64,000 nt of DNA from Candidatus Makaraimicrobium thalassicum. GTDB lineage: Bacteria > Omnitrophota > Gorgyraeia > Tantalellales > Tantalellaceae. Numbering within the stretch: position 1 is the stretch's first letter; every line of letters begins with the position of its first letter. The notes under the pieces were generated by a model. It worked only from the letters and a program-made list of their open reading frames with translations. It made no database searches and was not told the origin of the DNA. Position numbers and translations under genes: made by a program. The stretch spans positions 4,414 through 68,413 of the forward strand of contig QNCM01000002.1 in the NCBI GenBank assembly GCA_003644505.1, in the 5' to 3' direction. This document shows positions 3,001-24,393 of this stretch, piece by piece.

Positions 3001-6000
3001 GCGGAGGTCCTGCGGGAGCTGCGGGGCTCTGCGGATGATGTTGTGGCTTCAAGGGCCTCTTCAGCCTGCGCGGAATTAGACGCGGGTTTATCCGACAGGC
3101 TTGCCATCCTGGCTATTGAGGCGGCGAATAAAGGGGATCTGGCCGCGGCTGAGAGGTACTTTGATAAAGCCGAAGGATCGGATCCGCGGAATGTCAATGT
3201 TCTTCATCCCCTCGGCGATTTTTTGATCAGCATAGAAAGATACGAAGAAGGTATCAAAAGGCTGGAACAGGCGAAGGGCCTTATAGAAGATGTCAATACG
3301 CCTTACGGCCTGGATCTGGTCCGTGACCTTAGAGACGCGTATGTCAGATACGAAAAGAACCTTCTGAAAAATGGGAAGATCATCCAGGCAGGCTCCTTGT
3401 TCAGGAAAGCCCTGATCACAGCTATAGAGATCGACAAAAGGAAGGACAAAGAAGGGGAAGATTCCAAAGAGTTGTATGAATTCCTGATAGATTTCGTGGC
3501 TACTCTGGAGGGGTCCCCTGAAGGAATAGAACAGGGGGTCGCTGTCTTGAAAGAATTACTGCCTATAGCGGCGGAAAAGAGTTTAAGCGCGGATCTGATC
3601 AATTTCGGACTGGGTAAACTCTATTATGAAAAAAGCAAAATGGAGGAAGTTTTCGGAAATCCGGAAACTCTCGTGCATCTGGACCAAGCGGTACAGGCTA
3701 CTGGTAAAAAGGATGAATACGCGGCACTGGCAGCCTTTCATATCCGACGCCAGCGGGGATATATCTACTTAAGCAGTTATGATTATCGCAGGGCTAAACA
3801 GGATTTCGACATATGCCTCCAGCAGCAGAAGGTTTCAGAGGAGATGATGGCGCCTGTCAGGATAGTCGCCAGTGTGATCGATGAAGCATCGGGGAATCAT
3901 TCAGGCGTTATTAAAAGACTGAACGACGTTGATGAAGACCTGATTCCGGCTTCTCACCAGGTTATTCTGAACAAACTCTTAGGTGATGCTTATTACGGGA
4001 TAGGTGATCTGGACCGGGCACTGAAGTTTTACCAGGAAGCGTTATCAAAAGAGAGGACCCTTTTCAACCCGGTTATCCGGGTACGTCTGGGCAGGGTGTA
4101 TCGGGATATAGGAGAACCGGAAAAAGCCGTGGAATCGTGCGAACTCGCGCTTAAAGAAGCCATGGAGGACATGGACATGGTCCCGGCTAAAGGCCGCGAA
4201 GACATAGAAAGCTGGATACAGAACCTGGGATCGAACAGGGACAGGATCCCTGTATTTAACATACAGCCGCTGAGTGAAGTTCTTATCTCCATGGGGGCCC
4301 TGGATGTTTTTTCGGAAAAAGAGATATCCGGCAAAAGCCTCTTTGATATGGGCGTTGAATTAGGCAGGCAAGAGGTGGAAGCGAGAAAAGCTTTCAGCAA
4401 TAAAGTGCCGGATGCGGATATAGATCTCTTTGCCGGCATTAGAAAGGAAGTGCTGCTGGCGCTGGCCGGTGAAGCGCTTCAGAGTGAAAATCACGCTTTC
4501 TGGGGAGAGATCATCGAGGCGCTCGGGAAAACCGGAGGCGAAGACATAGTGGATTATCTGCTGGATAAACTGGAGCTGCCTTTCCTGAAAGGGGAGAAAG
4601 GGTTGGAGCCCTTGCAGAACTTCCTTCGCGCCCTTCTCTGGACAAGGGAGAGCCGCGCCTGGGAGCAGGTTGACCGTGTAATGGCGGGGCAGGATAAAAG
4701 ATCAAGAAAAAAGATCGCCAAGGCTATCACCAGACTGAAGAAAGAGCTCGGCAGGGACGAGGAGAGATCAAGGAAAGCGGAGGAAGCGGAGAAGGCACGG
4801 AAAGCAAGAGAAGCGGAAGAAGCCGAGAGACTGAGGAAGGAAAGAGAAGAGAAAAAAGCGGAGAAGGCACGGGAGGCGAAGGAAAAGAAAGCCAGGCAGA
4901 AGGCTTATCGCGCGGTTCCGCCGGCTGTTATGGAGATACTGGGGCCAGAACAGGTAGACGCGATCATCGATGAAGCGATACAACAGGGTGAATCGGAAGA
5001 GACAGATGTAACTCTCACGATAATGGCAGTCGACGCGTTGTCAGACAGGTATATCAAATATCACCGTTTAATAGGGGAACAGCGGGATGAATTGGCAGAG
5101 AGATTGAGACGGGAACGTATATCATTGCCGGAGTTTCTAAGGACGTTGGATGACGAGGCGCCCGCTACCGGATGGAAACAGACAGTTGAGGTTTCAGCCG
5201 GGGAGTTATATCTGGTTGAGTTCGGTACCTGGAAAAAATATGAGGGTCTTGGGTCTGAGGGTTTTGAGCCGGAAGTAATTTTAGAGGTAAGGAGCCCGGA
5301 GATAGACAGGGAATCTTTGAGCGCATATCAGGAACGTCTTAAAGAAGCCCTTGTTGAGAGCGGGATCTACCGGAGATGGAGCGAAGCTGAGCTCGAAACG
5401 CTGGGCGGCAATCTTTACCCCGGGACAGAGGAAGATCAGGGAGCTTACGACGACAGGTGGGATGGGATCATGGACTTTTTTGCGGGGCTGTTCACGGAGA
5501 TATCTACCGAAATTGAAGTCAAAGAAAAGGATACGCCGACTGCGCCGGAAAAAACCACCATGAAAGCGCCCGGTTCTTTATCAATGGATGAGGATCGGCG
5601 CATCGATAAACAATATATTACGGGGCTCGTCTCAAAGGCCACGGAGAGGACATGGGAAGTCAATATTCCGGCGGCGGCGGATTATATTAACCGGCACGCC
5701 CCGCCGCTCAAGACCGCGCATGTTGAACCCGGCGGCATACGGATATTTACCGTTGACAGCCTCGGGGATAAGCTGGGCATCCCGCGGTTCAAGGGCGCGG
5801 AAAAAGCGCCTGATCTTGTTTACGCGTACGGAGTATTTGATGAAGAGGAAGATGACCTGAAGATATACGCAACCGAAGCCTATTTTGATGCGCATTTAAA
5901 AGATGATATTTTAGCTCTGGCCGAGATCATAGACCATGAATATACGGAAAATGTTCTGGGCTATTCCCACCGCGCGGCAGCGTCACGTTCCCGCAAATTC

Positions 6001-9000
6001 GTTCCAGAAGGCGGTTTCTTGAGTCCTTTCCATTATTTTTATATCAACCGGATAATAGAAGAAGGCGATTATTTATTGGCGGGATCGCTGGTTCCGGAGA
6101 GGGATGCCTCCGATGATATCGTAGAGGCCAATAAAGGGGATAAAGATGCGGCCGGGAAAATACAGTCATACGAAAAGCTGTTTTTCAGTTACCTGCGTCT
6201 CCTGGAATGGCTTAGTAAAGCGGATAAAGAAAAAAATCATGACGTACTGGCCGAATACGCGCTAAGGGCTTATAAAATACTGGAAAGATATCCGGAGATA
6301 ATATTGACCGAAGGACAAAAAGAGATATATCAAAGGATATCTCCCGAAAGGTTTTACATCCATGAATATGAAAGCGCGAAAAAGGTATCCATGCCGTTAT
6401 CTGAATTCCCGTTCGACGAATTTGAACATTACGGTGAAAACACGGTATTTTTGGGGAGCAAATTCGGTTCAAGAGGCGGGCTGTATTGTAAAGGCAAAAA
6501 GAAGCCTCTTATACGCATAACTGAGCATCCCGGCAGAAAGATAGCTTTTAACCTCAAGAACGGGGATATTTACCGCATATGGATCCTGGATGACGGGGAT
6601 AACGTGATAGATTTCCGGCAGATGGGGCAGATATACGAGACTGACGGCAGGTTCCGGAAAAGGTTTTACTATAAAATCACGCGATCACAGTTCAACGAAC
6701 TGGGAGATTGTATCATAAAGGAACACCGGCTGGATGCGGCCGGCACCTTGCATATAGGCGGCAGGGTCGTGAGATTCGGCGCGTATTACGCTAATTGCAA
6801 AGTTGAAATAAAAGTCAGGTCAGGGCAGATAGACAGCGTATGGATATTCGATGAACACGGCCTGCCGGTTAAGAAAGCTGATTTTGTTCTTATATTTGAT
6901 TGTAACGGAATTTCAAAAGCTGGCACAAATCAGATCCCTCGATTCGCTTCGCTCACTCGGGATGACAGAAAGTTGTCATCCCGAGCGAGGGAGCCGGAGG
7001 CGACCGAGTCGAGAGATCTAAGTTCTAAAAGAGGTTGGTTAAAAGGTTCTTTTTACCGTAATCTTACCCGGAATGAGCTTGAGAAACTTGATAATGTGAC
7101 TTTAAAACGGCTCAGGTTGAATTCAAGAGGCGCACGCTATCTCGGCGGCAGCAAAGACCCTGTACCGTATTTTCCCCGGCATCCAAACGCGGAAGTAGAG
7201 ATAGATATGATACAGGGACATATAGATAAAGTCAGGATACTCGGCTCTGATGGAGAGGTTGTAGAAGAACATATCTTCAAGCTGGTGTATGACGAGGAAG
7301 GCAGGATAACATGTTCGTTCCATAAGGATATGGCCGAAGATGATTTTGAAAAGATAACAGGAAGGATCACAAGGTTAAAGACCGGTGGCGGCGGCCATCT
7401 TAGAGCCGGCACTGCGGCCCTGGGCACGTTTACCGGGCACAAAAATTGCCCGGCTGAAGCGGAAATCGAACGCGGTATTCCAAAGGTGATCAGGTTTTAT
7501 GAGGACATGGAAACCCGGAAACCGGCCGGCAAACCCGTGCGGTACAGCCTTATTTACGATGCCGGAGGCAGGCTCATAGATTCGTTCAGAAAACAATATT
7601 CAAAGGCGGCGGGAGAAAGATTAAAGAAAGCCACGGTAAAGGAATTTTATCTCAATAAGGGCGCGTCTCTGAAATTCGGCGAACGGTACTGGGCGACTTT
7701 TGACAGAAAGGAATACGGCGGGCGTAAGATCGAGTTTGACGTTACTGACGGTATAGTGACAGAGGTCCGGATATTTGACAGGCAGGGGGAGAACATAGAG
7801 AAGACGTGTCCTTTTTCGCTTGTATACGAGATCGGCGGAAAAGGAAAGGAAAAACTCGTTGATAGTTTCTGGACAGCTTACGGCCCGGAGAAATTCGAAA
7901 AACTGACAAACCATGTGATTAGAACTTTGAAACTCAGCAAATATGGGGCGCTTGATATCGGAGGCAGGGTAGGAAGGAATAAGAACATGCCCCGCGCGAA
8001 GTTTCCCGGTAACCCCGGCGCTGAAGTCGTTGTATATGTGAAAGAGGGCGAAGTTATAAGAGTGACCGATATTGCCGGAGATGAGTTGGAAGGAACGTAT
8101 TTTGGCAGGGATAAAACAGGCGCAAGTGGAGAGAGTAATCTTGACCGGCGTTACGGGCAAGGCCCCCTGGCAGCCGGGACTGTTGACCGGTCTGCTTACC
8201 GTATGCCTAAAAAACCGTTTGAGATACTCAAGGAAAAAATAAAAGAGGCTGTCTCTAAAGGAGAGATCCCCGATGGAGACCATGAACGGTTCTTAAGCCA
8301 CGGACTGGCATGGACGGACAAAGGGGCAAGGGTGCATTTTATAAGAAATTCTAAGATTTATACACTTGCCATGGAAGCCATGAACACGGGTTCAGGTGCG
8401 GGTGATCAAATAAAAGATTACCATGACCTGATGGGATACATCAATCTTTATTTAAGGACGAAATATATTATTAAAAGGTTTAGAAGGGAATATAAATATG
8501 ACATCGTAAAACAGGTAATATTACGGCTTAAGGATTATCCCCGGTATATCCGTCTTCTTGAGTTTTACCGGGATCAATACGGAAAATTCGCGGGTGAGGA
8601 CAGAAAAGGAGACGAAGAGGCTCTGCTTGAGGACATGATCAGCCGTTTTGTCGCAAGCAGGGCCCTGGGCGGAGGAGCGGTTGAACTTTTGGACGAAAAG
8701 GGCATGAACAGAAGCCTGGATGATTTTTGGCCGCTTGCTTCGTGTGTTATTAAGGATGGGCTGTGGATGTTTGAGAATGAGCTTGATAAGATCAAAGATA
8801 TAATTTTTAAGGAGAACGCACAACTTAAAGATGAATATAAAACGGCAAAAGAAAAGCAGGAACGGCTTAAAAAGCGGATATTCCAGCTCTTGAACGAAGC
8901 CTCTCCTACAGTGAAACAACTGATAGAGATCATACGTATTTTAGACCCGCAAGCCGAAGCCCGTTCAAGGGCACAAGAGGACGCATCCGCGTTTGAAGGA

Positions 9001-12000
9001 TACTTAAAAGAAGATATGGTAATTATAGCCGGATATTTAAGATCATCCGGCTACGACGTTCTTGACCAGGCTGTCCTGAAAAAGGCGTTTGTTTCTCTTA
9101 AAGGTAAGCTTATGGTGATAGACTCTTTTGATATGTTCGTAAGGGCCGTCGGAGGTCTTGACCGCAGAAATATGATCGATGCCGTTTTTGAGGGGAGCAT
9201 AAATTTTGAAAGCGCCCTTGTTTCCCATATGCGTGGTTTGAACGGAACAAGAAATATGGGAAGCAGGCTGAGGAGTTTGACTGCAGCCAGCGGCCTGTCT
9301 TCAGATCAGGCAGCGGAAGAGATCGGTTGTTCGCCTTCTACGATGCGTGCATGGAGAACTGATGAAAGTGACCCTTTACCCGGATATCCGCCTAAAATAG
9401 CGGACGTGTTCAGCAGGCGATTGGGCGAGCCGGTATCGACTTCACTGCTGGTATACGGCCAACCCCTGAACGATGTGTTGCAAAAGACGGCTACTTTTGG
9501 CGAACGGCTGTTCATACTGGCACGGCTTTCCGGCCTGGATGCGGATGAAACAGGCAAAATGATCGGACGTGACGGTCAGACTATAGGATCGTGGACGCGC
9601 GAGTTTAATACACCGCAGCAAGAACTGGATTATCTTAAATTAGCCGGGATATTCAGTAAACGTTTAAAAGAGAAGATCGAGGTTACGACCCTGATGTCCG
9701 GAATAAGCCTGGATGAATTTCTGTGCAGCGAGAAAGTAAAGGCTCCGAATGGCGGCGGGGAGATCCAGGTTACTCCGGGGCTCAGGATCAGGGTTTTAAG
9801 GTTGTCATGCGGCCTTACGACGACGGAGCTTGCCGAGAAGGCCGGTGTCCCGCACGGGACGAGAAGCCTGGTGAATAAATGGGAAAGAGAAGGAGTATTA
9901 CCCCGGGTAGATCGTTTATTAAAACTGAGCAGGATCTTTGGAAAAGTAAAAAAAGATATAGAGGTTACGCATATACTTTATGGGAAGTCTCTTGTCAAGT
10001 TTTTATCAAAGTCGGACAGTTTCGGGGAAAGGGTGGAATCCATAAGACTGGCTTTAGGATTGGAACTAAAGCAGATGGCGGAAGCGATGGGGATTCACCT
10101 TGCTACTTTACGTGTGTGGAGAAAAAGGGTGGATCCTCCCGCAAACGACAAGCCGATAACATTATTAGATGTGTATCACAGGGAAACCGGTAAATATCTG
10201 GATGGATGCCTGCTTTTTTACGGAAAGACCTTGAATACGCTTTTGGACGAACTTGACAGGTCAAAAGCTCCTGAGATCATCAAATATTTCAGGATCTCCG
10301 CGGGATTGAGCAGAAAAGAAGTAAGTGATAAATTAGGCGTTGATGAGAACACCGTATGGCAGTGGGAATCGGGGGTAACACTGCCTCATAGAAGCAACAT
10401 GGTTGCTTTAACCGGAATGTTCAAAGAACTTTTTGCCTCCAGGGATAATGGTATAAGCGTAAGGATAGTAGCTGAGCATCTTGTGCCGTTATTGTTAATT
10501 CCGCCTGGACATACTGATAGGGGCCCGGCGCTTTTTGTCGATCCGGCAACCGGGGACGTAAGAGCGTTGAAAGGGGAGCCCGATGCCCCCGGCATGATAT
10601 CAGAGCATAAAGCGATCAACCTGGTATGTGACGAACTGGTGTTCAAACGGCAGAGGCCGCCGCTGGCCGCGGGAGATCCCCTGTATGATTTTGTCAGTGA
10701 AGTCGCTCCTGAAACGGACATATATGTTATAGATGACGCCGCGCTCAAACAGGGATTAGAGAAACTTGCCAGAAAAAATAATCAGCCCGGCCTTGCCGGG
10801 CTCGCGGGAGGCCTTATAACCCATGCCGGCACCTGGCGTGACCCTGAGACGGGCCGGATCAGGGCCTTAAATATGTTTATCCCGGCATCCGTTTATGAGC
10901 TTCTGCTGGGATTCCTGCAAAGAAGGCACCTGATGGAACAGGTCGTCCCGTTACTTGGGTTCTGGAGAGCTCACGAAATAGGGCATCTTATAGACCGCGA
11001 ATACGATCTTGACGATGAGCTGCCCGAAGGTGCAGAAGACATGGCAAGGCTCATACTTCTATTGAGTAAAGCACAATGGGCTATGGAAAAGGGCAGGCTG
11101 AAGCAGGCACAGAAATATGCGGATACAGCCCTGGAGCTTCACCCCGGGTTCGATTTCACGCTTGATCTACGGTTGCGTATAGAGGAGAGCGGCTACGGGA
11201 TGTCAGGCGTTAGAGTGAGCATGATGGCCGTTCTAGACGCAAATATGCGGGATAAAGCGATGATAATAAGGCGCCATCCACCGGAAGATAATGTCCTGGA
11301 TACACTCGCGGGTAAGGCAGGAAAGGATTCAAAACGTCTTTCCCAGGTTATACAGGTCATATTGCAGCAAGCATTCGAAACGATCAAGAGGGGTGGTCCG
11401 GCTCTGGCGGAGTTTTTAGATGATCTGAAGATAAGAGGAGCCGGGATAGAGCAGGGTTTGTCGGATCCGGAAGAAGAGATCGCATTAGAGAGGGGTATAG
11501 CAGAGGGGGGAATGCAGGATATCGGGGATTATGTTGTCCTGCCTGTTGTGTGCAGGTATATAACACGCGCGCTGGAACAGAGTCCGAAACTGACATGGCA
11601 GATGAGCGTTGTCGAGAAATTGATGGATCTGGCAGGGAAAGGAAGAATAGGAAGTAAAACAGAAGTCTATCATGAGGAATCCGGGTACCGCACCAGTCTC
11701 CTATCCTATATATATTATCTCGGAGCGCGGGCGTACATGGCCGCGAACCTTAACAAGGCAGTGATGTACTTCGAAAAATCGACGCAGCAGGACAGGCCTA
11801 TGCCCGTATCATTTACAGGGCTTGCTCTTTCCCTCGTTGAGAGCGACAGGACAGAGGGGTCTTTTGAACGGGCGTATCAGGTGTTGGGCCAGGCCAGGGA
11901 CAATTTCGGAGATCTGGCTGTTATCGCTGAGGCAGAGGGTATCCTGCACGCGGAGCAGGAAAAGACGGCCCTGGCGTTGAGAGAAGCGCGTGAACTCTTT

Positions 12001-15000
12001 AAGAGCGGTAATTATGTCGCCTGCAGACAGAGGATAGAAGAAGAGACAAAGAGGCTGCATAGCACATCTCTTTTCCCTTCTTTCAAGAAATTCGAGGGAA
12101 AAGGAGGATTAGGCAGACTGGTGAGCGGCCGCACGGGCAGTGCCGCGGTCAGCCCGCTTCTGACAGAGTTAAACGCAAGGAATGAAACTCTCCTCAGGCT
12201 GAAATACAGAGCAAGACAGAATTTAAGTATGGGAGATTATGACCAGGCGGAAAGGCGTTTCAGGGAGGTACTGGACCAGAACCCTTCAGACAGTGAGATT
12301 GAACAGCTGTTGCTGGATATCTCGCGCAAGAGAGAAGAGGCACAGGAAAAAAGGACAGCGGAGGAACTGGGGCTTTTTGCTGAGTGCCTGAAAAAGGCCG
12401 AAGGACAACTGTCCTCCGGGGACCGGGAGGTATCTGACGGCCGGCTGGAAAGCGCCGAAGAGTATTATAAAAAGGCCCTGCTTGAGCTTGAACGCGCCCC
12501 GCAGGTTGAGATGTCCGCTGTGCGGGTTGATGAAAAGATGAGGGAAGCGATCCGGAGAATAGACAGTATCGGGAAGGAAATAGCCGAAAAGATAAGAGAT
12601 ATACAAGCCGAAAGGCAAAGCCGGGCAGGGGAAACCGGAGTGATCTTTTCCGGTGATGTTGCCGGCGCATTCGACAAAGCGCTTTACCCCCCGGAGGGAA
12701 AGATTACAGTGCCGCCCATACCGGGGAGCGCTCAAAGGATCATACTGGAGGCTGTCAGGAAGGTATCAGAAGGTGACGAAAGGGATGTCAGGGACATACC
12801 CAGCCGCGGGGATGTATGGGTATGCCTCGCCGGCATCTACAGGATAGTTTTTACCCTTACCGACAGCGGGGATATATTTGTTGTCTGGGTCGGCAGCAAG
12901 GACACGGCAAAATACAAAAAAGTGCTCGCGCCTCTTCCCGAAGGCTTTGACCCCGAAAAAATGCTGGACCGGGCCGTGAGAATAGAGGACATTGGATCAG
13001 GCGCGCCAGCCCGGCCTGTTCGCGCTCAAGCAAAGAACAAACCCGGCGGCCCGGCGCTTTTTGTCGATCCGGTGACCCGGCAGATGAGGGCATTGAAGGA
13101 TGAACCCGATGCCGCCGGTATGATATCAGAGCACGAAGCGGTTAACATGGTATGTGACGAACTGGTGTTCAAACAGAAGAGACAGCCGCTGTCCGCGGGA
13201 GATCCCTTGTATGATTTTTTCAGTGAGCTCGTTCCTGATACGGACATATACGTGATTGATGATGCCGCGCTCAAACAGGCATTAGAGAGACTTGCGAAAA
13301 AGAACAGTCAACCCGGCCTCGCCAGTCTCGCAGAAGGCCTTATAACCCATGTCGGCACCTGGCGCGACCCTGCCACGGGCCGACAGAGGGCCCAGAACAT
13401 GTTTATACCGGATTCTGTCTACGGATTTTTGGTGAAGCTTCTGAAAAAAAGGGACTGGTTCCCGGATGCCGGTATACTGCTTGAATTCTGGAGGCTTCAC
13501 GAGAGAATACATTTTTTGTTACGGGAAATTGATATTGACGGGATGATAGCTTCCGGGGAATCGCAGGAAATGGCGGAACTTGTTCTTCTGCTGAGCAGGG
13601 CGGAACGCGCGCTGGAGAAAGGCATGCTGGAAGAGGCTTCGGAATACGCGAAAAAGGCCATTGAGGTCAACACGAACCTTGCGGTTACGCTTGAATTAAA
13701 TGGGCGCATAAGTGAGGTCAGGAAAGACTGGGACGAGGCATTTCAGGATTATTTGATAGCCCTGGCAGCGGCAAATTTACAGAGCAAAGAGATAACCATA
13801 GGGCATCCGCTGGAGAGCAGGGTGCTGAATATGCTTAAAAAAATTACCACAGCCAGCCCCAAGAAAGTCTTCAGGGGCGTCATGGATCAAGTAGAGTTCC
13901 TGAAAAGTCTGGGGCAGACTTCTCCGGTATCAGATGAAGACAGGGAAAGACATATAATCACTTATTTCGGCATTCTGCCTGTCACGTGCAGATACGCGAC
14001 CCCGCCATTACAGATAAAGCCGGCTCAATGGGATCTGACGATGACACGGTTCCAGGTAGCCGTTGCTGACAGGTTATTGGAACTGCTCAAAGAAGGAAAG
14101 ATCGTTGATCCGATGGACGGCGGGGAATCCGGCAGGCTTTTATCTTACATTTATTATCTTGCCGGCGAAGCGAGCCGGTCGGCAGGGGATATTGATCAGG
14201 CTGTCGCGTATTTCAGGGAATCGGTCCGTTATGATGAGCCCTTTTCAAGGTCGCCGGCGGCACTGGCTGTTTCTCTGGCGCACAGGGACGGGACCCCGGG
14301 ATCTGTTGAAGAGGCATATCAGGTCCTTTCCTCGGCCGAGGAACAATTCGGCCCCCTGGATGTGTTCAGTTCGGCGAGAGAATACGTCCGGGAAACGGAA
14401 GAATGGATCCTGGTTCATGAAGAGGCCCTTGAACTGTTCAGGCGGTGCGATTATGAGGCTTGCCAACGCTGTATAACAGAGGCGAGGAGAAAGAAAGGCG
14501 AAACAGCCCTCCCTGCTCCTTTGAGCGTTTCTTTGGAAAACCTGCGGAAAAGCGCCCGTTTAGCGGACAGGTTAAAGAACAGGGGGATAGAAAGTTTCAA
14601 GAATCAGGATTATATGGCGGCTGAGAAGTGTTTTGAAGCGGTATTAGAGGAGAACCCTGCTGATGAGGAAGTGATGGGATTACGCGCCCGGATCCGGGAA
14701 ATCAAAGAGGAAAGACAAAAGAAAACAACGGCTGCGGATACCGCGGATAAACGTGATCAGGCAACGGAAAAATGCTACCTTGCGGTGCAAAAATTCCGTC
14801 TTATTGCCGAAAGGCAGGAAAATGCCGGACGGTTAAGCAGGGCCAGTAAGAATTACAGAAAGGCACTGGCCGAGCTTGAAGAAGTGCCGCCTTTTTATAC
14901 CGCAATCGGACAGATTCGGAGGCAAATAGAAAAGAAACTGGCCGCCATAAAGGGCCTGCCCGATAAAACGGTAAGGAAAGGCGAAAAATCCGGACCGCAA

Positions 15001-20406: not shown

Positions 20407-23400
20407 ATGAGGATTCATCATGTGTATTCCAGACGCACGAAGAAAATGAACCGTATTATCACAGTGGTGATAATTACCTGTTTTGCCGCATGTGATATTG
20501 CGCGGGCGTACCCGGCCGGCATGCGGGCCGGTAGCGGCAGTCTCGTGCAGCAAACCTTATTCACCTCTCCGGATAAAGCCGGATCTCTTGCCAGGGCGGC
20601 AGCCAAATATCTTGAAGCGAGTATGGCGAAAGCCTTTGCCGGAATACCGCTCGCGGATGTCCAGGCCACGCTTGAATATATCAGGGAGACCGCGTTTTCC
20701 AGCTTGCGGATCGACGGCAGAAGATTTAATGTAACAGGCGGCGCCGAAGAAGGACAGGTCTTTGTAACAATATCAGAAAGCTGTGTTTTACGGTATTTCA
20801 ATCCTAAAATGCCCGCGCTCCCTCTTCCCGCAGATAACCTTACAGTATCCTGGGAATATCCCATCAATGAGTATCTTGGGTTCCAGCTGTTAAAAACCAA
20901 ACCGGCCGGTTCAACCCAGCCTGTTGAAAGTTCTGCCCTGGAAGCCGGGCAGGAGGATATGTTCCGCCGTCTTGGCATGAACAGCGAGGTTTTTCTGCAT
21001 GAGATAGTCAATATACAGTATGTTTTCAGCACAGTTTTGGAAATAGGGGAATTACGGTTGGAAAGAGACGGGGAAGGAACTACCCCTAAGTTCGCCGGGC
21101 TACTTGAATTGAATCAGCAGATGAAAGTGACCATTAACGGCTTAAAGGAACTAAGCAGATTGTTTGTATCTGGCAGATTGACGAAGGAATATCTGAACCA
21201 GACCCAGGGCTGTAGAGAATGGAGAGGGAAGGATCTTACGGAATATTTCTTTGAAGAAGTGGAAAAATTACACGATATGCTTGAATGTGTGAAAAACTAT
21301 CATCTGAACAGATATGTGCCGGTCTTTTCCCAGGAGCATAAGGCGTCAATAAAAATAGCGTCTCAGCTGATGCCGTTCGCATGTTCAAAAATAGCCGCCT
21401 TTTTTCGCTCAAAAGGCGGGTTAGACGCAATAGGACGTCAGCAGGAAATGGACGTGAATTCGGTTATCGAAATGGCGGCCGTCAGTTTTTTCCGCAAAGA
21501 TAAAAATATCATCTTATCTTTAAACGATGTTCCTCCGGTAATGGGGGATAAATTGTTGTTTATGGAAGTGTTGTACAACCTTATTAAAAATGGATTTGAA
21601 GCGGCAGATAAAGAAGGATTTGTCCGTGTGGGCACTTTTCTGGACAGCCAGTCAAATGAAGTTGTTGTTACCGTTGAAGACAACGGGAGAGGGATCGCGC
21701 CGCAGGATAAGGACCGTATTTATGAGATGTTTTTTACCACTAAGGGTGAATTGGGTACGGGGGTAGGGGTTGCCTTTTCAAAAGAAATAGTCGAAAACGC
21801 GGGCGGAACGATCACTTTTGATTCGGAATACGGAAAAGGCACGACGTTCACGATACGATTGCCGGCTTCCGCAGGGATTGATACAACCGGAAATCCCGGG
21901 GGCATTTTGGGTTATTTTAAGGCTTTGGACAAACAGGGAGATAATGCCGTGATCGCGGGCGTCAACCTCGCTGATCTTGAGAACGAATCGGATCTGACCG
22001 CTTATTTGAATGATTACTGTGTGGTTCAGGAAAAGGAGGTATTGAAGGATCTGTTGCAGAACAGGCTCAAAGGCGGAGAAAGGGCATTGTTCGATTCGGT
22101 TTTTAATCCCAGAGCAAGACTTGCGGAAAGGGTCAAAGGAGAGGGAAGACCGCCGCTTAAGGTAGTCCATGTCCGCGGCGGCAGAGGCGCCGCTAAGGTG
22201 ACTGAGGAACTGTCGGCACTGGCGCGGGAAGGTTTCGTGGATCTGACCATTATCCCCGGTGCAGTGGATGACGGAAGAAGCTGGGCCGATATGGCCTATT
22301 ACCTCAATACCACGGGGGTCCCTGACATGGGTAAGGGATATTCCGATATGGGCTCTGATACCGATGCGGTGGGTTTCGCGGTATCCAGGCTGGTGGAAGG
22401 GGATACCCCCTGTTCCAAACAAGAAGCATTCGAGTTGCTTGGAGAAGCGATCAGGGGTTTTAAAAACAAGTATCACAAAGCCGCGAACGCGGATGTTCGA
22501 AGATTGGTCAGGCAGTTTGAGGTTCTGGATAGAGAGAAAAGGGAGAGAGTACTGCCCTGTATCATCGAATTTTACGAAAGAATAAAGCTGGAACAGAGGA
22601 AGAACAACCTTTATATGGATATCAGAAGAATCCCCATGAGAAGCGTTATTATCGTCGGCGCCAGGGAGATATTCGGATCATGGCAGGGAGCGATAGATTT
22701 CTTCGGTGAGTTTGTGGATTCCGCGGGAAGGGTGTTGCTTCCTACCGAAGACAGATTATACGCGATGGCCTTACTGGAGGACGGCACGTTCCTGCCCACG
22801 GAGAACGCGCTGAACGAAGCCGGCAAGGACAGCGGCTATCTATATTTTACCGTGGGGCCCGGATCTTTTGCAAGTAAGGAGGTGTTTGAGGAGATATTTT
22901 ATGCGTCCATGGGAAGGCCGCCTCAGGAGCGCGAGAAAAGGATAATCGAGCTCCTCCGTATGTCTGAATATGACAGGTTAAAAGGTGAATCCATAAATTT
23001 ACTGAGAAATATGTCAAAGCCGGAGATAAAAAATTTCATAGGCTTCATAGAAAAAACTTTTTCCTACCTGTCCTCCGGCATAATGATCCAGCCTTCCGCG
23101 GCAGAGGCCGTAAGCGAGGCTGACATGATCATCTATGGGCCTACGGATATAGAGTCCAATATCGCTTCTGCCGTCATCTATGACGATATAAGAGAGGCCA
23201 TTGAGAGGAACAGGTCCGCTGTAAAGATACTTATAGGCAATTCCAGGGATGAGCATCATATCGAACCGCCCGGGACAACGATAAGCTCGCAGATGGAAAG
23301 GTTATACCGCTATTTGTCGGATCAGCAGCGGTACAGGGTAGATGAATGTGATTGGGGGAGGCTTACTGATTTTGTAACGCATGTCATAGGCAGAAAATAT

Positions 23401-24393
23401 GACGATCCGGAGCTCAGGGATTATATCCCTTTTGACGCGGACTTATTGAGGAAAACAGGAGTTGCCCCCGTAGGTCTGGATCTTGAGATGCTGAACCTGG
23501 GGCAGGACCGCACAGGGGCATACGGAGCAGAATACCGTCAGACGCGGGACGGCCGATACAATAGTTCTCTTATGGTTGACGTTATGCTTTCGCTTTCCAT
23601 GATGAATGAGCTCGGATATCCGTTAGAGCTTTCCGAGGAGAAAAAAACTGTGGATCCGTTGTCTAACCGTTCCGCGGGAAGAACGGTCATGGCAGGAGTG
23701 GAAAAGACAGTCCCACGCCTGGTAAACGCGCTTGTCACAGCCAGCCGCAGGGTCTCACCCGCCCGTGCTAGAGCCATGGTCCAGGCCGGAGACGCGGAAA
23801 CTGCCTCAGAAAAAGAGGAAAGAAGGATCGGTATTTTTATCGATGAAAGGCTCGGCAGCGGAAAGACGGAGGAGATAATGGAAGTTCTGGAAAAGCTGAC
23901 CCACAGGGAGGGGCTCTTAGGCCGGTTGTTAAGGAACGCTGCGATTAAGTACGGTGATATAAATGATATCAGGGAAGGCCCCGCATATCTGGAAACAAGA
24001 AAGAACGTGCGCAAAGAAGACATGGTAATTATAACGCGTAATGAGGAGCTTGAATGTTTAAGGCCTTATGAAGGAAGCTCTGTCATAACCAAGGTGGATG
24101 ATGCTGACCTGGGATCAGATTCTTATTATCCTATCCTGGAGATAATTCTTTTTTCGCTCGCCCGCGCAAGTATCCTTGAATATAGGAAAGACGACCTCAT
24201 CGGATTTTATGGATCAATCCCCAATGTTGAGAGACTCGACGCGGACGCAATAGTTGATCTATGCTGGGATGAAAACATGAACAGATGTAAAAGCACGATC
24301 ATCCTCAAACTGGGGATCCCGGATGCCGGACAGATAACCGGCGAGTCGGAATTATACAAAAGCATCGCAGAATACCTCGCCCGCAACGCCTAA
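20407..24393 (+). CDS. Large secreted or membrane-anchored protein combining a GHKL/histidine-kinase-like ATPase domain with a CofD/YvcK-like (UPF0052) domain. The true start may be the internal Met at 20446.
   Basis: A 1,328-aa ORF begins 19 nt after the giant CDS stop. A signal-peptide-like N-terminus MNRIITVVIITCFAAC (possible lipobox AAC) starts at 20446. The HATPase_c motifs (N, G1, G2 boxes) and the CofD/YvcK-like block are detailed in the sub-features. Confidence 0.75.
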   Translation: MRIHHVYSRRTKKMNRIITVVIITCFAACDIARAYPAGMRAGSGSLVQQTLFTSPDKAGSLARAAAKYLEASMAKAFAGIPLADVQATLEYIRETAFSSLRIDGRRFNVTGGAEEGQVFVTISESCVLRYFNPKMPALPLPADNLTVSWEYPINEYLGFQLLKTKPAGSTQPVESSALEAGQEDMFRRLGMNSEVFLHEIVNIQYVFSTVLEIGELRLERDGEGTTPKFAGLLELNQQMKVTINGLKELSRLFVSGRLTKEYLNQTQGCREWRGKDLTEYFFEEVEKLHDMLECVKNYHLNRYVPVFSQEHKASIKIASQLMPFACSKIAAFFRSKGGLDAIGRQQEMDVNSVIEMAAVSFFRKDKNIILSLNDVPPVMGDKLLFMEVLYNLIKNGFEAADKEGFVRVGTFLDSQSNEVVVTVEDNGRGIAPQDKDRIYEMFFTTKGELGTGVGVAFSKEIVENAGGTITFDSEYGKGTTFTIRLPASAGIDTTGNPGGILGYFKALDKQGDNAVIAGVNLADLENESDLTAYLNDYCVVQEKEVLKDLLQNRLKGGERALFDSVFNPRARLAERVKGEGRPPLKVVHVRGGRGAAKVTEELSALAREGFVDLTIIPGAVDDGRSWADMAYYLNTTGVPDMGKGYSDMGSDTDAVGFAVSRLVEGDTPCSKQEAFELLGEAIRGFKNKYHKAANADVRRLVRQFEVLDREKRERVLPCIIEFYERIKLEQRKNNLYMDIRRIPMRSVIIVGAREIFGSWQGAIDFFGEFVDSAGRVLLPTEDRLYAMALLEDGTFLPTENALNEAGKDSGYLYFTVGPGSFASKEVFEEIFYASMGRPPQEREKRIIELLRMSEYDRLKGESINLLRNMSKPEIKNFIGFIEKTFSYLSSGIMIQPSAAEAVSEADMIIYGPTDIESNIASAVIYDDIREAIERNRSAVKILIGNSRDEHHIEPPGTTISSQMERLYRYLSDQQRYRVDECDWGRLTDFVTHVIGRKYDDPELRDYIPFDADLLRKTGVAPVGLDLEMLNLGQDRTGAYGAEYRQTRDGRYNSSLMVDVMLSLSMMNELGYPLELSEEKKTVDPLSNRSAGRTVMAGVEKTVPRLVNALVTASRRVSPARARAMVQAGDAETASEKEERRIGIFIDERLGSGKTEEIMEVLEKLTHREGLLGRLLRNAAIKYGDINDIREGPAYLETRKNVRKEDMVIITRNEELECLRPYEGSSVITKVDDADLGSDSYYPILEIILFSLARASILEYRKDDLIGFYGSIPNVERLDADAIVDLCWDENMNRCKSTIILKLGIPDAGQITGESELYKSIAEYLARNA
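21490..21880 (+). other. HATPase_c (GHKL ATPase) domain of the downstream protein
   Basis: N box is LYNLIKNGFEA. G1 is VEDNGRGI and G2 is GTGVGVAFSKEIVENAGGTITFDSEYGKGTTFTIRLP. No canonical HisKA H-box (HE[LI]RTPL) is visible upstream. Confidence 0.7.
22150..23330 (+). other. CofD/YvcK (UPF0052, 2-phospho-L-lactate transferase / gluconeogenesis-factor)-like domain, divergent
   Basis: The N-terminal motif KVVHVRGGRGAAK...DLTIIPGAVDDGRS parallels YvcK's KIVVIGGGTGLS...ITAIVTVADDGGSSG. The distal motif ADMIIYGPTDIESNIASAVIYDDIREAIERNRSAVKILIGNSRDEHHIEPPGTT parallels ADLIVLGPGSLYTSIIPNLLV...AI..S.A.KVYVCNLMTQPGET. Confidence 0.4.

Follow-up and report, generated by a model that had tools for sequence, protein, structure and literature searches.

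A giant Omnitrophota protein with reiterated XRE-type helix-turn-helix units and RelE/ParE-like folds as internal domains

The Omnitrophota genome assembly of Candidatus Makaraimicrobium thalassicum (GCA_003644505.1) contains a giant gene in which folds familiar from toxin-antitoxin (TA) systems occur as internal domains of a single polypeptide. We analysed a stretch of 64,000 nucleotides from contig QNCM01000002.1 (forward-strand positions 4,414 to 68,413), referred to as the window, to which all nucleotide coordinates refer. The giant open reading frame (ORF) spans positions 10-20388 on the forward strand and comprises 6,792 codons within the window, stop-free across 20.4 kb, with no competing long ORF in the other frames of this segment. 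Through an identical neighbouring protein, the window was matched to an ENA metagenome contig of 114.9 kb (ERZ27227322:k141_1246129) where the predicted product of this gene is 6,814 aa long, placing the 5' end about 22 codons upstream of the window. These codons probably encode a signal or transmembrane (TM) segment, as in the relative P0009. Orthologous uninterrupted frames at the loci L002, L004 and L003 support a single ORF; that of L002 (JAYEOV010000006.1, 1-17900), from another metagenome-assembled genome, is open over the full available 17.9 kb, which corresponds to 5,966 aa, and at both ends.

Comparison of fragments of the giant to the whole protein with BLAST identified three kinds of duplicated cassettes, A, B and C. 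The two C cassettes are about 285 aa in size (C1, aa 1832-2131; C2, aa 5136-5436) and share 77% protein identity (77-80% in the self-BLAST), the A cassettes of about 825 aa (A1, aa 2703-3527; A2, aa 5436-6260) share 60%, and the B cassettes of about 820 aa (B1, aa 3505-4340; B2, aa 4347-5150) share 40%. The cassettes are recently duplicated and connected via Pro/Lys-rich linkers, and the duplications of A and C as well as the start of B are still detectable at 75-83% DNA identity. Each A cassette consists of a helical part followed by five helix-turn-helix (HTH) units, and each B cassette of a minimal-zincin-like domain with an HExxH motif, a region rich in tetratricopeptide repeats (TPRs) and a RelE/ParE-fold domain with a conserved tail of 30 aa. 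The order from the N- to the C-terminus is membrane anchor, P-loop kinase, TPRs, C1, beta-rich repeats, A1, B1, B2, C2, A2, S-adenosylmethionine (SAM)-dependent methyltransferase and C-terminal domain. The order of cassettes in L002 is C-A-B-C-A-B-C-A, with an extra C-A pair between its two B cassettes. The number of cassettes therefore varies among close relatives, and gain and loss through recombination between the repeats seem to be frequent.

An earlier note, made from the sequence of the window alone, had described ten HTH units of the XRE type in this polypeptide, five in each of two modules, with a unit size of about 87 aa and a region end at position 18600. The ten units were recovered by Pfam, by internal alignment and by a profile search against the PDB, and the count of five per A cassette holds; the units are 79-93 aa in size with a mean of about 84, and the proposed end cuts the last unit, which extends to position 18708. 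The A1 array is located at 9259-10518 on the forward strand (units 9259-9495, 9496-9774, 9775-10020, 10021-10269 and 10270-10518) and the A2 array at 17449-18708 on the same strand (units 17449-17685, 17686-17964, 17965-18210, 18211-18462 and 18463-18708). In an alignment of all ten units, which follow the pattern GLS..LA..GV...T...WE.G..P, the G-L, W and L are invariant and the P is near-invariant.

The search against HTH_3 (PF01381) and HTH_31 (PF13560) that the earlier note had proposed was performed with Pfam on 800-aa pieces of the giant, using gathering cut-offs of 23 and 27 bits, respectively. The pieces that covered the arrays passed: the one over most of the A1 array matched HTH_3 with 77.2 bits (E = 1e-21) and HTH_31 with 67.9 bits (E = 9e-19), and the one over most of the A2 array matched HTH_31 with 43.7 bits (E = 3e-11). 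When the units were scanned singly, three of the ten exceeded the HTH_3 cut-off (units 3, 5 and 10, with 33.9, 31.4 and 27.5 bits) and five further units gave sub-threshold matches of HTH type. The second unit of each array matched no HTH family on its own and was detectable solely via the internal alignment.

The earlier note had also assigned the units to the HigA type. A profile of the ten units matched the PbsX/Xre, ImmR, 434 and P22 C2 repressors in the PDB (E = 1e-6 to 7e-4), and the best NCBIfam models were RstR and DicA, with the antitoxin models MqsA, spr1629 and Y4mF found at sub-threshold levels only. HigA was not matched in either the PDB or the NCBIfam results, the best matches being repressors of phages and integrative and conjugative elements. 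Judged from their sequences, the units are genuine domains of the generic Cro/C1-XRE kind and are not marked as HigA. A PADLOC scan gave no matches beyond the methyltransferase and the generic HTH ends of models of the RmrA/capH type.

The divergence of the arrays bears on what they may bind. Between A1 and A2, helix 1 is 82% identical, the recognition segment of helices 2-3 49% and the C-terminal half 61%, and the net charges of the units range from -2 to +9. The A1 array has a ratio of nonsynonymous to synonymous substitution rates (dN/dS) of 0.32 relative to the ortholog in L002. One alternative to the reading we prefer, set out below, is that the protein is a membrane-tethered organiser or regulator of DNA, in which the ten units would bind DNA, either at specific sequences or multivalently, so that the chromosome is tethered or compacted at the membrane or a transcription factor activity is sequestered, with the RelE-like domains and the TPRs as accessories. 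Such a role would suit the Cro/C1 signatures, the strongly basic charge of some units (+9), the probable location of most of the chain in the cytoplasm, and an array that is covalently multimeric, where free XRE proteins are dimers. Most units, however, are acidic or close to neutral, conservation between the paralogous arrays is lowest in the recognition helices, two of the ten units match no HTH family, and there are family members without any HTH, which argues that DNA binding is not the core function of the family. We consider this alternative unlikely.

The RelE/ParE-like domains are located on the forward strand at 12631-12996 in B1 and at 15094-15438 in B2 and, together with a conserved tail (in B1 ..P.GFD....L..AVRIEDIG), form the final 115-122 residues of each B cassette. 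The two copies are homologous, with 31% mutual identity and a BLAST E-value of 2e-9. The sole Pfam matches of the B1 copy were to Gp49 (PF05973; 13.0 bits, E = 0.11) and ParE_toxin (PF05016; 12.5 bits, E = 0.23), for which the gathering cut-offs are 23.9 and 23 bits; the B2 copy gave zero matches, and no toxin family scored above the cut-off for either. Across the family, 3 of 11 copies match ParE_toxin, the best with an E-value of 9.8e-4.

These sequence matches are weak by themselves, and the fold assignment is settled by three independent lines, among them an exhaustive search and a family profile. Relatives of the domain were retrieved with an exhaustive HMMER search of 1.84 billion representatives. 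The search yielded four large TPR-containing proteins (P0001, P0003, P0005 and P0009) and P0013 (E = 8e-4), a member of Pfam ParE_toxin of 88 aa and the only small protein found in this set. A profile of the 11 family copies aligned to P0013 over 70 columns with an hhalign probability of 93.8%, and its best sequence match in the PDB was RelE from T. thermophilus (2khe, E = 0.02). The earlier note had described a close alignment to the RelE core, which was an overstatement: hhalign to E. coli RelE covered 25 columns only, at a probability of 4%, and phmmer with the B2 domain against the PDB returned nothing above noise (TRIM58, ATM). The modelled domain has the N-terminal strand, the helices and the antiparallel beta-sheet of 3-4 strands that characterize the BECR fold. 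The link to RelE is thus at the level of superfamily and fold, via relatives of the ParE_toxin type, and an origin of the domains from a TA toxin is plausible. At that level the description of two RelE/ParE-like folds as covalent domains of a giant protein stands.

Candidates that were rejected as relatives include P0002, P0004, P0010 and P0012, which are proteins with Bact_surface_Ig-like repeats that matched only the beta-hairpin columns, and P0006-8, P0011 and P0014, which were set aside as spurious owing to similar multi-stretch matches, without a domain scan.

That all of this reflects a chance resemblance of motifs, a chimeric assembly or a decaying pseudogene might be suggested by the lack of any RelE/ParE Pfam family above threshold in the giant and by a word-indexed homologue search which, with the alignment of the two RelE-like copies, returned nothing. 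The earlier note had named chance similarity as the outcome should neither the RelE fold nor the HTH find support. We count this explanation as already refuted by the results presented here and regard it as extremely improbable.

To compare the active sites, we placed the residues of RelE in register using alignments with P0013, 2khe and E. coli RelE, the sequence of the last having been verified; the register is approximate in the beta2-beta3 hairpin. At the positions equivalent to K52, K54, R61, R81 and Y87, the B1 domain has V, L, R, K and Y and the B2 domain has S, K, N, L and H, and neither copy shows the RelE-type catalytic constellation. For the three residues singled out in the earlier note (R61, R81 and Y87), this means partial retention in B1 and loss in B2. 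P0009 and the third copy in P0005 both have R, K, R, R and Y. The sole invariant column across the 11 family copies is a hydrophobic core Phe, and the tail past the fold (P-E-x-F-D ... A-V-R-I-E-D) is more conserved than the putative active site. Active sites vary widely within the RelE superfamily, and toxins of the ParE type require none.

The dN/dS value of the RelE-like domain in comparison to L002 is 0.34, within a range of 0.17-0.41 over all parts of the cassettes, which indicates that the cassette domains are under purifying selection and are maintained rather than decaying. From the combination of a degenerate catalytic set and retained selection we infer that a toxin fold of the TA type has been domesticated here, in agreement with what the earlier note had proposed. 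The pairing of the HTH and RelE-like domains as antitoxin and toxin found no such backing: the nearest downstream HTH array is about 670 residues away from a RelE-like domain, and relatives with the RelE-like domain are devoid of HTH units.

The HExxH domains at the start of the B cassettes resemble minimal zincins or gluzincins and are located on the forward strand at 10522-11028 (B1; HEIGH at nt 10972) and 13048-13554 (B2; HERIH at nt 13498), with 83% DNA identity between the copies over 364 nt. The HExxH motif lies on the active-site helix inside a zincin core fold, and H...HExxH is invariant; H101 and E189, both invariant, and E160, which is nearly so, are candidates for the third metal ligand. 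With a dN/dS of 0.17 relative to L002, this is the most constrained part of the cassettes, and the domain is probably an active metallopeptidase. The helical TPR regions that follow are located at 11029-12630 in B1 (TPR_2, E = 1.4e-8; TPR_14, E = 7e-8) and at 13555-15093 in B2 (TPR_2, E = 8e-12; also TPR_8 and TPR_1), again on the forward strand. A scan of JGI metagenome contigs with the HExxH domain found nothing.

At each A-to-B junction an HExxH domain comes immediately after an XRE-type HTH, a feature shared with the ImmR/ImmA, DdrO/IrrE and COG2856-Xre switches, and the matches of the HTH units include ImmR and the HTH end of models of the spr1629/RmrA type. We examined the HExxH domain as an ImmA/IrrE (M78, COG2856) peptidase that partners the XRE units and found no support for this assignment in sequence or fold similarity. 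Compared to the minigluzincins (proabylysin, projannalysin and selecase), which are related to the M48/M56 cores of HtpX and BlaR1, the domain of the giant has no relationship at the sequence level and carries extra N-terminal elements.

The presence of a peptidase-like domain in each B cassette raises the alternative that the giant is a latent polyprotein or fused TA-like device. Triggered by, for example, phage infection, stress or contact with prey, the HExxH domains would then cut linkers and so free RNases of the RelE type or toxins of the ParE type along with XRE regulators, the toxins being silenced beforehand by the HTH arrays or the tail. XRE HTH, HExxH peptidase and RelE/ParE domains all recur in TA systems and in switches of the ImmR/ImmA type, fused single-gene TA proteins exist (PMC11980606), and self-cleavage by embedded peptidases has been raised for Omnitrophota giants by West-Roberts et al. 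(bioRxiv 10.1101/2023.11.21.568195). In the giant itself, HTH unit 5 directly abuts the HExxH domain and B1 has kept R61, K(81) and Y87; in the family, P0009 and P0005 have the full RelE-like catalytic set. Set against these points are the degenerate catalytic residues in the giant and the lack of evident pairing between its HTH and RelE-like domains, and we judge a latent device to be quite unlikely.

All named relatives are proteins from metagenome-assembled genomes of Candidatus Omnitrophota that are annotated as hypothetical or as helix-turn-helix domain-containing, and the family so far appears to be confined to this phylum. With the complete A and B cassettes as queries, a single protein was retrieved, P0015, which is a fragment of an ortholog. 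P0009, complete at 1,177 aa, looks like a minimal family member: after a signal-like N-terminus it has the N-domain of the giant, a single B cassette and the common C-terminal domain, and it has no HTH. P0005 contains three RelE-like and two HExxH domains, also without HTH, and no HTH was detectable in P0001 and P0003 either. The RelE-like domain consistently terminates an HExxH-TPR cassette. Its presence in relatives that lack HTH units therefore indicates that it is coupled to the HExxH and TPR parts and not to the HTH, and the absence of HTH from P0009 and P0005 indicates that the arrays are a later addition in the lineage of the giant.

Other cassettes are combined with the same framework in P0003 (MFH1665220.1, 2,544 aa, partial), in which a RelE-like domain and a C cassette precede several copies of a module resembling GNAT acetyltransferases, with the same C-terminal domain at the end; on this evidence the family exchanges enzymatic cassettes. 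The locus of P0009 (L006) adjoins a divergent GAF-histidine kinase and a response regulator.

The giant's N-terminal part contains a candidate membrane anchor at 649-1107 on the forward strand, with about four TM helices and a methyltransferase motif of the ICMT/PEMT type (RHPxY...EE..L..FG..Y); the matches to ICMT in Pfam (E = 4.7e-4) and to isopcys_mtase in NCBIfam (E = 4.9e-8) are sub-threshold. The whole segment of 649-1653 combines this ICMT/PEMT-like domain (RHPVY at nt 886) with a P-loop domain similar to nucleoside or nucleotide kinases (GAGKT at about nt 1330), all below curated cut-offs. Hydropathy peaks were found at aa 216-236 and 301-333, hydrophobic helices are limited to aa 214-340, and there is one additional borderline peak further on, at aa 661-679. 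A class I SAM-dependent methyltransferase domain is encoded near the other end of the gene, at 19096-19404 on the forward strand (Methyltransf_11, PF08241, E = 7e-11; Methyltransf_25, E = 1.2e-10). In the ICMT/PEMT-like family, the RHPxY and the C-terminal Glu-rich motifs are oriented to the cytoplasm. Because of this orientation, the P-loop kinase, the SAM methyltransferase and the scarcity of later hydrophobic peaks, the chain is predicted to be cytoplasmic from about residue 370 onwards and tethered to the membrane.

Taken together, we favour an interpretation of the giant as a modular, membrane-tethered scaffold or regulatory hub that uses TA-derived folds as binding modules and in which each B cassette carries a metallopeptidase domain that is probably active, and we assign this interpretation a probability of roughly 0.6. 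The ICMT-like anchor would place the remainder of the chain in the cytoplasm as beads on a string. The RelE/ParE-fold domains, which in the giant have lost most of the RelE catalytic constellation, would descend from a toxin of the TA type whose shorter relatives still look competent for catalysis, and would bind a protein partner, RNA or the ribosome without cleavage. The HTH arrays would bind DNA or partner proteins multivalently, and the HExxH domain may cut partners or linkers. The differing number of cassettes in L002 is as expected for additive scaffold modules.

Several observations weigh against this interpretation. The topology is deduced from a crude hydropathy scan and from knowledge of the family, and the true N-terminus is located outside the window. 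The structure model of the RelE-like domain is for B2 only, was built from an alignment of two sequences and has a predicted local distance difference test (pLDDT) score of 74.7. The fast evolution of helices 2-3 and the spread of charges among the HTH units would fit diversified DNA specificity as well as lost DNA binding. Furthermore, the RelE-like domain in B1 retains R61, a Lys at R81 and Y87, and may have residual toxin activity. Finally, the functions of all family members are deduced from sequences and models only.

RelE/ParE toxins and XRE antitoxins or repressors are normally small, free-standing proteins. In type II TA systems such as RelBE, HigBA, ParDE and YefM-YoeB they are encoded by small two-gene operons, whereas they are here reiterated as internal domains of a protein of 6.8 thousand amino acids (kaa) in an ORF of 20.4 kb; the giant further differs in its degenerate catalytic residues, in the lack of evident HTH/RelE pairing and in HTH units that are not specifically HigA-like. 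Fused single-gene TA proteins have been catalogued, among them 69 gp49-HTH, 27 HigB-HigA-type and 7 RelE-YiaG fusions (Gerdes 2025, PMC11980606), a study in which multidomain BECR proteins were largely set aside. Such fusions are small, consisting of two or three domains, and place toxin and antitoxin side by side, in contrast to the giant, where the HTH arrays and the RelE-like domains are in separate cassettes, hundreds of residues apart, and duplicated. Multidomain BECR proteins include ToxM and Cami1, a CARF-RelE fusion (PDB 8phb) in which a RelE domain works within a larger protein.

The giants of the Omnitrophota include a class of membrane-anchored proteins with cytoplasmic domains that contain methyltransferase, HATPase_c and GNAT domains (bioRxiv 10.64898/2026.06.07.730766). 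The protein described here fits this class by its N-terminal TM segments, TPRs and methyltransferase, with HATPase_c in a neighbouring gene and GNAT in a relative, as in the signal-transduction/regulatory module of such giants, but at 6.8 kaa it falls below the size limit of at least 10 kaa in that catalogue, and neither SecA-DEAD nor carbohydrate-active domains were found in it. The texts of that study and of bioRxiv 10.1101/2023.11.21.568195 mention neither HTH nor RelE domains, and we found no description of tandem XRE arrays of five units or of this cassette in the literature, of which our coverage is incomplete.

We also considered a polymorphic toxin and rejected it: the RelE-like domains lie inside the chain, the methyltransferase and the family domain form its C-terminus, the domains that depend on nucleotide and SAM cofactors imply that it is located in the cytoplasm, genes of the housekeeping type follow downstream, and there is no immunity gene. 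A more speculative idea, which we hold to be very unlikely, is that the C-A-B cassette works as a self-contained switch for conflict or regulation, in which a multivalent XRE array, a protease of the zincin type and a latent toxin of the RelE type are covalently fused, and that it would cut itself on a trigger to free an active RNase and a regulator, or else that the HTH and RelE-like domains of neighbouring chains would bind one another like antitoxins and toxins into a lattice attached to the membrane. If true, the switch or the lattice would represent a new use of TA interaction surfaces as a construction principle of giant proteins.

The family spans shorter members in which the RelE-like catalytic set is complete, and giants where it has decayed while the domain is still selected. 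It offers a concrete, testable case of a toxin fold that has been converted into a structural or binding module. For the Omnitrophota, a phylum noted for giant genes to which functions are yet to be assigned, the HTH arrays, the HExxH peptidase-like domain and the RelE-like domain provide three handles for experiments.

No relatives in Pfam, NCBIfam or the PDB were found for the remaining parts of the giant (the C cassette, the N-terminal part of A, the beta-rich repeats and the C-terminal domain), the sole match of the C cassette being a sub-threshold one to T4_Rnl1_C (E = 0.0017). C1 is located at 5557-6402 and C2 at 15469-16317, both on the forward strand, with 83% DNA identity; both start with the identical 15-aa string TMKAPGSLSMDEDRR and contain the invariant, HExxE-like motif IDHEYTENVLGYSHR. 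The N-terminal helical parts of A1 (8116-9258) and A2 (16315-17448), on the same strand, were recognized as copies of each other by self-BLAST and belong to no family. About six beta-rich repeats of about 90 aa (..V.IFD..G..V....F.L.YD..G....SF..) fill the segment of 6436-8109 between C1 and A1. The conserved C-terminal domain of about 225 aa (19711-20385, forward strand) is common to P0001, P0003, P0009 and L007; its consensus (IPWLVQAMID..E...VVLLLD..LAEL...IVKGKG...ENIIVVTKSSN) was present in all family members seen, and a scan of JGI metagenome contigs with this domain as query retrieved one short contig.

The gene downstream of the giant (20407-24393) starts 18 nt past its stop codon, is probably co-transcribed with it and codes for a protein of 1,328 aa that contains HATPase_c and CofD/YvcK-like domains. 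This gene is followed on the same strand by genes for CinA, LigT, RecA, RecX, AlaRS and enzymes of the his and trp pathways, which indicates an ordinary bacterial chromosome rather than a mobile element. Within the giant, two segments of low complexity were observed: a stretch rich in Lys, Glu, Arg and Ala at about 4750-4990, upstream of C1 (RKAEEAEKARKAREAEEAERLRKEREEKKAEKAREAKEKKARQKA), which is a probable coiled coil, and a poly-Lys tract in B2 (ERKKKKKRKRAAAAE) immediately upstream of the RelE-like domain.

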